Origin: a virus
Direction: 5' to 3' (one strand)
DNA: 20,979 nt
Virus record (IMG/VR): IMGVR_UViG_3300045988_018631
Coordinates: 1 to 20,979 of that record
Shown: positions 1 through 15,008 of the stretch, in pieces
Layout: each line of letters begins with the position of its first letter
Position numbering within the stretch: position 1 is the stretch's first letter
The notes under the pieces: model-generated
Told to the model about the DNA's origin: nothing
Databases searched by the model: none
What the model saw: the letters and a program-made list of their open reading frames with translations, nothing else
Program-made: the position numbers and the translations under genes

Positions 1-2268
1 ACCGTTAATACCACCGATAACACCATTTACCATTCCTTTTACACTTCCAACTAATGAACTAACTGCTCCTTCAATTCCACCGAATACGCCACTTACAAAT
101 CCTTTTAAACCATTCCATGAATTCTGTATTCCTTGCAGAACGTTTGAAATTTTATTTCCTACCTTATCCATTACACCTTGAACTTTAGACCAAATGCCAT
201 TAAATACATCTGAAACCGTAGACTTGATATTATTGAAATATTTATTAATATTATCAATAACACCTTTTACTTTATCGCCCACTCTGTTCATTGTATCTTG
301 AATCTTGCTCCAAATATTGTTTATGATATCCGAAACTGTTTTAAATAAATTGCTTACGAATCCAATAATCGCAGTAACTACTTCACTGACCTTGCTCCAA
401 ATGTTTTGAGCAACCGTTAATATTACAGACCAAATATTCGCTACGATTGTAGCTACAATTTGAACAATAGGCATTATAAATCCTAGTATTGTTGCAATTG
501 CAGTTCCAACATACGTCACAACCATAGTTATAAATGAAATGATTCCACTTACCACACTTCCAACTACTTGAAGAATAGATGTTATTACAGGAATCATGCC
601 GATAACTGTTTGAATAATCTTTTTAATGATTGCTAGAATCGGTGGGCCTACCACACTAAGAACTTTTTGAGCTTGGTTAACAACATTTTGAATTGCGTTA
701 CCAATTTTACCTAAGATTTCTTTTGCAATAGGTTTAAGTGCGGTTTTCATTTCGTCAATAGCTTTTTTAACTTCTTTAAACGCAGGAGCTAATACTTTAG
801 AAACTTGACTTGTCAATTCTGTAATTCCACTTGTATCAATCTTGCTTAACACACTTGAAATTACATCACCAACTTTTGCAAACCCTTGTTGAATACCTTG
901 AATTGCTACTGTAATCAATCCAATGATACCGGCAAGAATAGGAGTAATAAGTTCGCCTATTGGTGTAAATGAATCAAGAAATGTACGTCCTAAGCCACTT
1001 AAAGCGTTCTTTAAGCCACCATTTGCAATTTCTTTTACTTTATCCATTGCACCTTCTACATCTTTATATTTATTCCCTACTGTTGTTAAGGATTGAATGA
1101 ATCCGGCGTTGAAATCTTCTCCCATTGTACCGAAAGCCGTTGCCGTTTTATTCAACTTTTCTTGTTGATTTGTAGTTCTTGAAATATCTTCTACAATCGC
1201 ATTCACAACATCTTTCTGAGTTTTTCTTCCTTCTTGCCATGCCTTGAATACATCTTGCGTCTTTGTATCGAAACTATCTAAAGCTCCTTCGATATTTCCA
1301 TCAACTAACCTTGTGGTAACTTCATTGATTGCGTCGTTAACTTTATCAAGGTTATAAGCTCCACCATCTAAACAATTCTGCATTAATGGGAAATATTCAT
1401 CTGCCGAATATCCTGCTTGTTTGAATTTACCTGCGTATTCTGAAATGTTATCGCCTAATTCATCCGACTTATTCAAGCCATTCTGAGCACCTGTAGCCAT
1501 AAGGTCAAACGCTTCTTTAGAAGTAATTCCGAACTGCTTCATTAATTGTTGAGCACCTCTAAGAGTTTCGTTCTCGTCCATGCCGAATGTGTCTCTTAAT
1601 GTCAATAAATCCTCAGTAACATCCTTTAAATCGACATCACTTATACCTTGCATTTGTTGTTTGACACGTGCCATCATATCGGCAACATCTGAAATATCTT
1701 CACCGAAATTGTTAGACCAAACATCACGAGCAATGTTTTTAAATTTGCTCATTTCATTACTTGAAGCACCTGTCTGAGCTTGAAATTTAGCCATAGCGTC
1801 ATCTAATTCTGTAGCTTGGTTAACACCGGTCTTAATCGCTAGTGCCATACCACCAACTGCTCCTGCTACGGCAGTAACACCAACGACACCTCCAACGCCT
1901 AATCCTGTTAATGTTTCAGTAATTGCAGAAGCTTCCGGACTAATATTCTGAATCTTCTCTAGCAGTCCATCAAATCCACCTTGAATTGATTCTAAGGCAC
2001 TGTTTCCTACTTGCTTAAATACATCAAATTTAGAACCTGTTTCTTGCGTTTCGGTTTGTGTATTCTTTTGCTCTTCGTTTAAATCTTTAAGTTTTTCTTT
2101 AATTTTTGGCGGTGCTTTTGAACCATCAGAACCTAGCTTATCAATCGCTTTTGAAGTATCTTTGATAGCATTTGTGGCTTCACTTGATACAACCTTTACA
2201 GATTTAATACCATTCTCTAGACCACTTGTGTCTATCTTTGTATCAAACTTTAATGTTCCGTCTGATAT
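1..2268 (-). CDS. Tail tape measure protein; the 3' end runs off the window at position 1. The apparent start codon is ATA.
   Basis: One uninterrupted minus-strand frame runs from 2268 to the window edge. It is missing from the ORF track because it has no stop in the window. The translation begins ISDGTLKFDTKIDTSGLENGIKSVK and continues through Gly/Ala/Val-rich hydrophobic stretches. The C-terminal part carries repeated N(I/G)IWSK(V/I) units (around 183-203, 301-320, 389-410, 427-445), typical of tape measure proteins. The position after the two chaperone-slot genes fits. GGAGGTG lies at 2284..2278, an in-frame TGA at 2271..2269, and ATA at 2268..2266. Confidence 0.85.
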   Translation of the reverse strand, partial: MSDGTLKFDTKIDTSGLENGIKSVKVVSSEATNAIKDTSKAIDKLGSDGSKAPPKIKEKLKDLNEEQKNTQTETQETGSKFDVFKQVGNSALESIQGGFDGLLEKIQNISPEASAITETLTGLGVGGVVGVTAVAGAVGGMALAIKTGVNQATELDDAMAKFQAQTGASSNEMSKFKNIARDVWSNNFGEDISDVADMMARVKQQMQGISDVDLKDVTEDLLTLRDTFGMDENETLRGAQQLMKQFGITSKEAFDLMATGAQNGLNKSDELGDNISEYAGKFKQAGYSADEYFPLMQNCLDGGAYNLDKVNDAINEVTTRLVDGNIEGALDSFDTKTQDVFKAWQEGRKTQKDVVNAIVEDISRTTNQQEKLNKTATAFGTMGEDFNAGFIQSLTTVGNKYKDVEGAMDKVKEIANGGLKNALSGLGRTFLDSFTPIGELITPILAGIIGLITVAIQGIQQGFAKVGDVISSVLSKIDTSGITELTSQVSKVLAPAFKEVKKAIDEMKTALKPIAKEILGKIGNAIQNVVNQAQKVLSVVGPPILAIIKKIIQTVIGMIPVITSILQVVGSVVSGIISFITMVVTYVGTAIATILGFIMPIVQIVATIVANIWSVILTVAQNIWSKVSEVVTAIIGFVSNLFKTVSDIINNIWSKIQDTMNRVGDKVKGVIDNINKYFNNIKSTVSDVFNGIWSKVQGVMDKVGNKISNVLQGIQNSWNGLKGFVSGVFGGIEGAVSSLVGSVKGMVNGVIGGING

Positions 2269-2288
2269 TCAATTTGCCACCTCCTTTT

Positions 2289-13318: not shown

Positions 13319-14653
13319 TTACCTCCTTAAATCTATATATCCACTATGGGTTATAAATGTGTAGCAGAACGAATCCCAATCATCATTGATATTGTTTACG
13401 TTCTCATCTTTTGGGATATCTTTCTTTTCATCCCATACTAATTCGCTCAATGCGTTTATCAAATTCTTACAATGTTCTTCTATCTTCAATCTACCTGTAA
13501 CAAGTAAGCTATCAACCGTTATAGGACGGTCTGCAAGCTCATTCTTCTTAACTGGTGCAATTATACTTCCGTCTAATCCTTCGGCGTAAAAATAAGCTCT
13601 AAGTGTGTTTATAAGGGTATTAGAAGCACTGTCCGGAAATATCCATTCTACATATCCGTAACATTCAATACAATGCTTATAGAACCTTACAAACGCTTTA
13701 CAAAACTTTGTTGCGTCTATTGCGTTTGACTTTGCCATATCTCCTTCATCAAGTGCCCACATATAATCCCAATCGTTCGTAAATCCTGTTAAGTGCCATG
13801 AATATTTTGAACCGTTGTCTCCAAAGTCTACTCCTATAATTAAATGACTGAACCTTTTTCCTTGTTCTTTCATCTTCTCTTTTAAATGTTGATATTTGAA
13901 TAGGTAAGGTTTGCAATTATTAGCAAAATAAGGGAATACAAGTCCTTCGGCTTCTTCCCTTTGCCCTTTTATATCTCTTTTGTAATAAACGCTATTCTTA
14001 TCGTATGATTTCAAAACCGTTCTTATCTGCTCATCACTTAAAGAATAATTGTCAACTAAGGTGATATGCCCATAGTTATAACCATATGTAGAATCTTTAT
14101 TCTGTTGCTCCTCATGATACCTTAAGAAATCTGTGTAATACCAATGATTCTTGCCTTTGGGGTTTAAATCATGAAATATCTTTCGATTACTTGACGCTAT
14201 CGTTCTGTCCATTACTTCTTGTAAGAATTCAATGCAACATAAATTTGCTTCGGTAATGTAAGCCATGCCGTATGAATATCCATGTATCGCATTCTCTGAG
14301 CCTTTCTTCGCACCGCCTGCAAAGAATACAACCTTTTCTCCCACCTTTGTGTTGATGTAATAACAATCTTTACCTTCATACTTTCCAACCTTGAATCTAT
14401 TCGCAAAATAGTTCTGCAATCCATATCCATTACAATCTCCAATATTAACACGTGCAGATGATGTATCTGTTCCTGCTATTAAATGGAACTTATCCGGATG
14501 TGTTTCTAATGCAATACAGAAAGCGTATGTGTTGAGTACATTCTTTCCGCCTCTTTTCCCACCTTCTAAAACATTAAGCCATGAATCAAATGTTCTTTTA
14601 AGATAAGTTAATTGCTTTTGATTGAAAGGCGCAGGCTTATTCAAAATCTTCAA
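13319..14653 (-). CDS. Terminase large subunit (TTG start)
   Basis: 444-aa protein with an N-terminal P-loop-like GGKRGGKN and an IGVDFG nuclease-type motif in the C-terminal half. It overlaps the small subunit gene. The start is a TTG, shown as M in the ORF track. Confidence 0.85.
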   Translation of the reverse strand: MKILNKPAPFNQKQLTYLKRTFDSWLNVLEGGKRGGKNVLNTYAFCIALETHPDKFHLIAGTDTSSARVNIGDCNGYGLQNYFANRFKVGKYEGKDCYYINTKVGEKVVFFAGGAKKGSENAIHGYSYGMAYITEANLCCIEFLQEVMDRTIASSNRKIFHDLNPKGKNHWYYTDFLRYHEEQQNKDSTYGYNYGHITLVDNYSLSDEQIRTVLKSYDKNSVYYKRDIKGQREEAEGLVFPYFANNCKPYLFKYQHLKEKMKEQGKRFSHLIIGVDFGDNGSKYSWHLTGFTNDWDYMWALDEGDMAKSNAIDATKFCKAFVRFYKHCIECYGYVEWIFPDSASNTLINTLRAYFYAEGLDGSIIAPVKKNELADRPITVDSLLVTGRLKIEEHCKNLINALSELVWDEKKDIPKDENVNNINDDWDSFCYTFITHSGYIDLRR

Positions 14654-15008
14654 TACTTCTTTCTTTTGCTACATCTGTAATCATAGCTTTATTAATTGCA
14701 TTTACTTCTGAAGCGTCAAAATGTGTTTCTACCTTATCAGTTTGACCTAGGAATTGTTTTCCTAAGAAAATAGCCATAGCAGGACTCTTTGATGCTAGTT
14801 TCCACTGCTTTGCTCTAAGGCTTGCACACCCTCCTTGCCTTTTTTGTCTGAATATTTCGGAGAATGACGCTTCATATGTTTCTTTGCACCATCTGTCTAA
14901 TGTTTTGTCGGATACATCTAACACAGAGCAGATTTCATCTTTTGTGCATTGAATTTGACATAGTTGTTCAAATTGTTTTTGATTAATGTTCTTCTTTGGC
15001 ATAGCTAT
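14637..15008 (-). CDS. Terminase small subunit; the start is ATA 15008 or ATG 15002
   Basis: HTH-like segment CTKDEICSVLDVSDKTLDRWCKE and the motif MAIFLGKQFLGQTD are recalled from small terminases. AAGGTGGTGA is 4 nt from ATA 15008..15006 (in-frame TAA just upstream) and 10 nt from ATG 15002. Confidence 0.75.
   Translation of the reverse strand: MAMPKKNINQKQFEQLCQIQCTKDEICSVLDVSDKTLDRWCKETYEASFSEIFRQKRQGGCASLRAKQWKLASKSPAMAIFLGKQFLGQTDKVETHFDASEVNAINKAMITDVAKERSIEDFE

Follow-up and report, generated by a model that had tools for sequence, protein, structure and literature searches.

The late structural genes of a gut phage in IMG/VR record IMGVR_UViG_3300045988_018631 appear to open at ATA instead of a conventional start codon. 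The stretch analysed, referred to here as the window, covers positions 1 to 20,979 of that record, and the element it represents is most likely a temperate siphovirus or prophage of Holdemanella, a gut member of the Erysipelotrichaceae. The ATA codons are very probably the true translation starts of these genes. The same element encodes a transfer RNA (tRNA) with the anticodon UAU and a body of the initiator type, which is probably a dedicated initiator for the ATA starts and, as a phage-encoded initiator-type tRNA(UAU), would probably make AUA an efficient start codon. On balance, the arrangement is probably a case of natural orthogonal initiation. AUA would act as a full-strength start codon private to the phage, the phage's own tRNA would gate virion synthesis or shield it from the host initiator, and the proteins so made might possibly carry formyl-isoleucine at their N-termini.

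Five late genes on the minus strand, encoding the portal, a head protein, the major capsid protein, the major tail protein and the tape measure, can begin only at ATA (Table 1). At each of these sites a strong Shine-Dalgarno sequence lies 5-11 nucleotides upstream, an in-frame stop codon stands 0-2 codons upstream, and no ATG, GTG or TTG follows for 18-35 codons, those downstream candidates being without a ribosome-binding site. The portal gene has AAGGAGGT 5 nucleotides before its ATA, with the stop one codon upstream and the first canonical start, a TTG, 32 codons into the open reading frame (ORF). The capsid gene has AAGGAGG at 9 nucleotides, the major tail gene AAAGGAG at 8 nucleotides, and the tape-measure ATA is preceded by AAAGGAGGTG. 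Translation from ATA would give N-termini of x-PNEIALAK for the capsid protein and x-ATQGTEVTTGQTVK for the tail protein, where x is the initiating residue. An earlier reading made from the sequence alone (the sequence-only reading) had described these five genes with the same coordinates and contexts. Its name for the second of them, a fibre anchor, does not hold, as the gene matches the head-protein family phrog_1220. At 13313..13321 (minus strand), the terminase large subunit and portal genes occupy one reading frame with only TAA GAA between them before the ATA, and the portal's Shine-Dalgarno sequence sits within the 3' end of the terminase gene.

Two further genes, for the terminase small subunit and a neck or minor head protein, probably also start at ATA. 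The Shine-Dalgarno sequence of the former is 8 nucleotides from the ATA and 14 from the ATG, and GGAGGT lies 9 nucleotides upstream of the ATA of the latter. A small coiled-coil ORF is ambiguous, and beyond the window, in relatives, the distal tail gene has an ATA start that overlaps the tape-measure stop. As the sequence-only reading had pointed out, three of the ATA codons in the window overlap the previous stop, as TAATA in the major tail gene (3738..3734) and as ATAG in the head-protein and neck genes (11915..11912, on the portal stop, and 4514..4511). These overlaps mimic the familiar TAATG and ATGA. A strict count took in triplets at Shine-Dalgarno distance that have a stop no more than three codons upstream and an open frame of 100 codons or more. 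On this count, which puts the ATA starts above chance, ATA accounts for 5 independent sites and ATG for 3-4. ATT is 1.4 times commoner than ATA in the sequence, yet has no site of its own, and all other scoring triplets neighbour ATA or ATG sites, except CAA at 11136.

Comparison with homologues places the start of translation at the same codons. When read from ATA, the capsid and head proteins match their PHROG profiles from residue 3 onwards, capsid residues 3-288 corresponding to positions 3-294 of the phrog_422 profile. Capsid homologues from contig L064 (69% identity) and Eggerthella phage PMBT5 (47%) align one to one, so that their ATG falls on the capsid ATA, and the alignment offsets of the tail protein and its ATG-started homologues are equal (29 and 29). 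Among family relatives, the extensions that lead from ATA to the first canonical start contain 30, 18 and 89 variable sites at codon positions 1, 2 and 3, respectively. Because variation concentrates at third codon positions, these extensions read as translated sequence. The alignment to homologues that the sequence-only reading had proposed as a check thus came out in its favour, the segments upstream of the canonical starts evolving as coding sequence.

Public annotation has consequently missed the N-termini. Public capsid gene calls are 256 or 275 residues long, as in WP_337526991.1, WP_288536604.1 and DAF49942.1, compared with 289 from the ATA, and fall 33 or 14 residues short. These RefSeq and GenBank proteins would be too short because ATA is left out of account as a start codon. 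Shortening of this kind also affects the genes for the portal, head, tail, tape measure and distal tail, and a single capsid cluster of this phage family comprises 1224 sequences.

The ATA codons are also retained across the family. Searching IMG/VR with the portal yielded 38 contigs whose portals are 95-99% identical. Together with further contigs from Logan and ENA assemblies, the comparison draws on about 40 contigs, three sources of assemblies and no fewer than eight samples. ATA is kept at the portal (38/38), head (38/38), capsid (33/33), tape-measure (26/26) and neck (31/31) starts, in 16-26 distinct local sequence contexts, as well as at position 17605 of the coiled-coil ORF (31/31). 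Control start sites in the same relatives keep ATG. The premise of the sequence-only reading that the neighbouring genes use ATG does not hold throughout, as the terminase large subunit starts at TTG. In a sister clade whose capsid is 69% identical, ATG is found at the capsid, tail, tape-measure and portal starts.

Among close relatives the start is polymorphic between ATG and ATA in four genes, two of which start at ATG in the window (Table 1). The better spacing of ATA over the nearby ATG in the terminase small subunit and neck genes, noted in the sequence-only reading, is borne out by relatives L055 and L052 for the former and L063 and L103 for the latter. In L063 and L103 the neck gene reads ATA GGA ATC, the nearby ATG having been replaced by ATC to leave only the ATA. 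Six ATA sites never revert to ATG, although the extensions next to them vary at 58% of their third codon positions. Since reversion would need one specific transition, this non-reversion is suggestive of selection for ATA itself, but only that.

The tRNA encoded upstream of the late genes carries the label Ile(TAT) from ARAGORN, although its body is that of an initiator. It has A1·A72, G2:C71, C3:G70, A11:U24, G29:C41, G30:C40, U31·G39, the loop CUUAUUA, A73 and an encoded CCA. The 1:72 pair is flagged as non-standard in the Rfam alignment, and A·A is invariant in all nine sequence variants. The formylation determinants A11:U24, G2:C71 and C3:G70 are likewise present and invariant; in the elongator tRNAs compared with it, position 11 is C or T. 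Identity to the initiator tRNAs of Escherichia coli, Staphylococcus, Enterococcus and Listeria is 78-80%. It falls to 62% for Ile(GAU) and to 54% for the second CAU tRNA in the Listeria cluster, presumably a lysidine-type tRNA-Ile2. In a BLAST search of phage and E. coli collections the best matches were all tRNA-Met, at a median of four places per E. coli genome. The top E. coli match, the one inspected, lies in a cluster of three tRNA-Met genes flanked by mltA and amiC, presumably the metZWV initiator locus. Of the features expected of an isoleucine elongator, only the UAU anticodon is present: the 1:72 pair is open, A11:U24 and U37 are found, and similarity to tRNA-Ile is low.

This body belongs to a phage lineage recognizable by a D loop of AGUAGUA without GG and a T loop of UGCAA with G at position 55. 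Other members carry the anticodon CAU in the loop CUCAUAA. Their 1:72 pair is always mismatched or weak (A·A, C·A, U·G, U·U, or U:A / A:U), G30:C40 is invariant and 29:41 is often A:U. Against a jumbo-phage array of 28 tRNAs, the window tRNA matches only the initiator-like Met tRNA (79-82%), the array's Ile(UAU) being unrelated. Within the family, two anticodon-stem alleles (TCGGT/GCCGA and CTAGT/GCTAG) stand three compensatory pair changes apart, the loop, acceptor stem and D arm are unchanged, and the T-stem bulge is re-registered. The compensatory stem changes and re-registered bulge indicate that the gene is functional. Judged by these comparisons, the tRNA descends from phage initiator tRNAs, is conserved and under structural constraint, and has exchanged the anticodon CAU for UAU. 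The lineage occurs in small contigs as well as in phages of about 190 kilobases (kb) that have arrays of some 28 tRNAs (L067, L078, L081, L092, L102, L113; L076, L098, L106-L114). Those arrays also carry a tRNA-Ile(TAT) of 96 nucleotides, possibly with an insertion.

The tRNA and the ATA starts occur together in every testable relative. The tRNA is present in all 31 family loci with enough upstream DNA, as well as in L103 and L105, and four further family contigs that seemed to be without it carry it elsewhere on the contig. No tRNA lies within 10 kb of the capsid gene in the sister clade. Contigs with CAU versions of the tRNA (L076, L098) have no ATA starts, a weak control as their loci span 5-7 kb with few Shine-Dalgarno sites. 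The suggestion of the sequence-only reading that this tRNA could be the matching initiator gains from its initiator-derived body, its retained determinants and this co-occurrence, all of which are consistent with such a role.

The locus has a fixed order of SSB, the ORF at 17605, a sigma-like gene, a terminator hairpin, the tRNA, variable cargo and terminase, within which the tRNA gene is far better conserved than its flanks. The sigma-like gene is found in 31 loci with a median identity of 98%. Upstream of the tRNA, the sequence TGN-(A/G)ATAAT of a putative promoter element is kept in relatives, and together with the hairpin upstream of it (Table 1) it suggests that the tRNA may be its own short transcription unit, starting at or next to the mature 5' end. 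At 17062..17101 (minus strand), the stop codon of the sigma-like gene lies inside the terminator hairpin, an arrangement conserved in relatives.

Table 1. Late-gene starts and features of the tRNA locus in the window
Feature	Position	Strand	Start codon and context	Match or remark	Start codon in relatives
Tape measure gene, cut by window end	1..2268	-	ATA 2268..2266; TGA ATA	PhageMin_Tail and tape-measure PHROG families	
Major tail protein-like gene	3230..3736	-	ATA 3736..3734; TAA TTA ATA	phrog_3099; first ATG at codon 18	28 ATA, 1 ATG (L052)
Neck / minor head protein gene	4152..4514	-	Probable ATA 4514..4512		
Major capsid gene	5395..6264	-	ATA 6264..6262; TAA TTA ATA	phrog_422; first ATG at codon 34	
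Gene starting at 9613	start 9613		ATG		29 ATG, 3 ATA
Gene starting at 10472	start 10472		ATG		17 ATA, 3 ATG
Head protein gene	11106..11915	-	ATA 11915..11913; TGA CGA AGA ATA	phrog_1220; first GTG at codon 35	
Portal gene	11912..13315	-	ATA 13315..13313; TAA GAA ATA	phrog_533, E 2e-54	
Terminase small subunit gene	14637..15008	-	Probable ATA 15008..15006	ATG two codons downstream	ATG at the ATA position in L055; ATA without nearby ATG in L052
Terminator-like hairpin downstream of tRNA	16884..16902	-			
tRNA, anticodon UAU, initiator-type body	16986..17061	-		ARAGORN; Rfam tRNA model, 49 bits	
Extended -10-like element TGTAATAAT, putative promoter	17068..17076	-		6 nucleotides before first base of tRNA	
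Terminator-like hairpin with six T, between sigma-like gene and tRNA	17079..17101	-		Conserved in relatives	
Sigma-factor-like small gene, directly upstream of tRNA	17088..17414	-		Weak match to phrog_1740, E 5e-4	
Small coiled-coil ORF	17411..17605	-	Ambiguous: ATA 17605 (Shine-Dalgarno spacing 6) or ATG 17599 (spacing 12)		

With wild-type tRNAfMet, the formylmethionine (fMet) initiator, AUA initiates at 0.1-1% of AUG, and tRNAfMet anticodon mutants initiate efficiently at the complementary codon (PMC11744186). In the mechanism proposed here, tRNA(UAU) would pair perfectly with AUA in the ribosomal P site, so that AUA following a Shine-Dalgarno sequence becomes an efficient start. The phage tRNA, and not host fMet-tRNA, would read the ATA starts, and it would be N-blocked and delivered by initiation factor 2 (IF2). 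Engineered tRNAfMet anticodon mutants take the amino acid of the new anticodon, and by analogy the amino acid charged here would most likely be isoleucine, methionine also being possible. Starts would have moved from ATG to ATA in the portal, head protein, major capsid, neck, major tail, tape-measure and distal tail genes, and probably in that of the terminase small subunit, and virion production would thereby depend on the phage's own tRNA. As a benefit, the making of late proteins might be tied to the expression of the tRNA, in analogy to the recoding of stop codons by gut phages, or the phage might gain independence from the host initiator tRNA.

Several observations weigh against a dedicated initiator that serves the late genes. 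The anticodon stem falls short of the three G:C pairs typical of initiators, the window tRNA having G:C, G:C and U·G and the majority allele A:U, G:C and U·G, although the force of this argument is weakened by the CAU members of the lineage, which are equally relaxed. The anticodon loop is CUUAUUA instead of the CUCAUAA of initiators, so that C34 is replaced by U, and A37 has also become U, an unusual base for that position in any tRNA. The D loop without GG, the G at position 55 of the T loop and a bulged T stem make folding and recognition by host enzymes uncertain. Methionyl-tRNA synthetase normally needs C34, and isoleucyl-tRNA synthetase normally uses A37 and other elements, which makes charging by either enzyme uncertain. 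Finally, the enrichment of ATA starts in late genes is statistically weak in this window. The sequence-only reading had treated these starts as a property of late genes, and the counts run in that direction (5-7 of 21 late genes and 0-1 of 14 earlier ones), but with numbers this small they amount only to a trend.

Among the alternatives, the one that fares best, although still unlikely, holds that the ATA starts are real but weak. Host fMet-tRNA(CAU) would read them through a C·A mismatch, aided by strong Shine-Dalgarno sequences and translational coupling, and the phage tRNA would be an ordinary isoleucine elongator for internal AUA codons. The ARAGORN call, the presence of 80 internal ATA codons in the phage, the three ATA starts at which overlap with the preceding stop makes coupling possible, and the incomplete anticodon-stem hallmark are all in keeping with this account. 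The body of the tRNA is not, being initiator-derived and only 54-62% identical to tRNA-Ile, nor is its combination of a conserved 1:72 mismatch with A11:U24, features that bar initiators from elongation and were reportedly described by Seong and RajBhandary in 1987. An elongator role is disfavoured because the 1:72 mismatch is retained and because ATA is the rarest isoleucine codon (16% of Ile codons), rarer in late than in early genes; codon supplementation was rejected as the tRNA's role on the same codon counts. Moreover, the sister clade without the tRNA uses ATG, and initiation at the low level that a normal initiator gives on AUA would ill suit the most abundant virion proteins (PMC11744186).

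Rather improbable, too, is a general-purpose phage initiator that would read AUA and, by U34·G wobble, AUG as well, and replace or bypass a host initiator tRNA that had been cleaved by a toxin or shut off by the phage, for example, with the ATA starts as a nearly neutral by-product. Such an initiator would account for the free interchange of ATG and ATA at four start sites among close relatives. The many unrelated phages that carry CAU versions of the lineage suggest that an initiator tRNA is valuable in itself, and at least one report proposes that phage tRNAs with altered anticodon loops evade tRNA-targeting nucleases (PMC10264068). The six ATA sites that never revert speak against neutrality, but only suggestively, and no sign of cleavage or loss of the host initiator tRNA was seen in this analysis.

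It is very improbable that the public annotation is right and that translation begins at the first downstream ATG, GTG or TTG, leaving the ATA-led extensions as untranslated leaders. Gene callers and RefSeq do agree on the shorter capsids, but the extensions align to homologue N-termini and vary mainly at third codon positions, and the strong Shine-Dalgarno sites are placed for ATA and not for the downstream candidates. A systematic G-to-A sequencing or assembly error at ATG, against which the sequence-only reading had advised a check, can be dismissed, as ATA recurs in the independent IMG/VR, Logan and ENA assemblies and in 16-31 distinct contexts, and 550 ATG trinucleotides along with many ATG starts are intact in the same sequence.

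A dedicated initiator for AUA thus remains the favoured account of this tRNA, and it can be set beside several known systems. With bacterial initiator tRNA-fMet and its phage copies it shares 78-80% identity, a 1:72 position without Watson-Crick pairing, G2:C71, C3:G70, A11:U24, A73 and G30:C40. It differs from them in having UAU in place of CAU, U37 in place of A37 and one or two of the three anticodon-stem G:C pairs, and it would read AUA and probably carry a different amino acid. Elongators such as tRNA-Ile(UAU) of Mycoplasma mobile and some Firmicutes, or tRNA-Ile2(CAU), have the same anticodon or read the same codon. However, their 1:72 position is paired, they have a pyrimidine at 11 with a purine at 24, and they have A37, none of which is found in the window tRNA, whose body is 54-62% identical to tRNA-Ile and shows no similarity to the jumbo-phage Ile(UAU).

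Bacteria and their viruses are taken to use an initiator tRNA that reads AUG and near-cognate codons with one fixed anticodon. Natural non-AUG starts (GUG, UUG, the AUU of infC, and AUA in animal mitochondria) likewise place a non-AUG codon in real genes, and in infC the weak AUU start is regulatory. Unlike the system proposed here, they depend on tolerated mismatches or on a modification of C34 in a single tRNA-Met, without a second dedicated initiator. The use of a phage tRNA to alter the meaning of a codon has its likeness in stop-codon recoding, which Borges et al. in 2022 are said to have proposed as a means of timing late-gene expression. In gut phages that read TAG or TGA as sense, structural and late genes depend on the phage tRNA, according to one account (PMC10879173). 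The difference is that a start codon would be reassigned here, and decoding during elongation need not change. Engineered orthogonal initiators such as amber tRNAfMet(CUA) and i-tRNA(AAC) combine an initiator body with a changed anticodon to start at complementary non-AUG codons, as described in at least two reports (PMC11744186; bioRxiv 10.1101/2021.05.25.445580) and as proposed for the window tRNA. Those are laboratory constructs, unlike the window tRNA, which is natural, conserved in its family and paired with recoded starts in essential genes. A full-text literature search found no natural dedicated non-CAU initiator tRNA in a phage or bacterium, nor a phage initiator for AUA. The mention of AUA in a paper on SPP1 was set aside as a precedent, as it is only part of a codon-usage table.

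Initiator-like tRNAs with this anticodon were also seen elsewhere. An unrelated viral contig of 62% guanine-plus-cytosine (GC) content (L007, IMGVR_UViG_3300043595_000031) carries a second initiator-like tRNA(UAU) at 9633..9709, with G1·U72, A11:U24, G29:C41, G30:C40 and the loop CUUAUAA, adjoining an odd tRNA call with a two-base anticodon. As an independent replicate this contig offers little, as no convincing ATA start is present in the 9.7 kb analysed. A scan of the genome_contigs collection for the tRNA pattern found no prophage of this family, only scattered fMet-like TAT tRNAs or 3' fragments in unrelated metagenome-assembled genomes (MAGs). Full-length initiator-like TAT tRNAs occur in a Gemmatimonadales MAG, where one lies beside a normal tRNA-Met, in an Arsenophonus endosymbiont, and in Dehalococcoidia, Calditrichaeota and Kapaibacterium MAGs (L012, L014, L016, L019, L020). 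The other matches in that collection are 3' tRNA-fMet fragments resembling attachment-site remnants. A metagenome scan aimed at the host's initiator tRNA yielded further tRNAs of the phage type and none from the Holdemanella chromosome.

The window has a GC content of about 34%, and all its genes lie on the minus strand. Read from high coordinates downwards, early and replication genes (including SSB and a ParB-like gene) are followed by the small sigma-like gene, the single tRNA and a siphovirus late module. The latter runs from the terminase small and large subunits through portal, head protein, a variable fibre-like region, minor capsid, scaffold, major capsid, connector/neck and major tail to chaperones and the tape measure. 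A megablast search of the window against GenBank phages gave no match. The element is assigned to Holdemanella because proteins of the capsid cluster are annotated in RefSeq as Holdemanella sp. and are located on contigs of up to 92 kb.

The regions 8300..11100 and 14600..16700 (minus strand) are mosaic across the family. Relatives with portals 95-99% identical share only 41-71% identity in the fibre-like genes and both terminase subunits, and in L103 an HNH endonuclease replaces the small terminase region. Between the tRNA and the terminase, at 15029..16095 (minus strand), the window carries as cargo a P-loop ATPase ORF (233 residues) and a GNAT acetyltransferase ORF, which jointly match phrog_11143 (357 residues) and are split by a frame change near 15470. 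This ATPase and GNAT gene was considered as a partner that might acylate the tRNA and was rejected, as it is missing from all 38 family loci.

If the proposed role of the tRNA is correct, a natural second initiator with a different anticodon, together with recoded starts in essential genes, would be a new departure from standard decoding and the start-codon counterpart of stop-codon recoding in gut phages. It would raise the prospect of private start codons that time or protect late translation, along with the question of which synthetase and formylase accept the tRNA, and it would offer synthetic biology an evolved orthogonal pair of initiator and start codon. For annotation, the consequence is that gene callers and RefSeq shorten every ATA-started gene of a common gut phage family, and tRNA finders label its tRNA as Ile.

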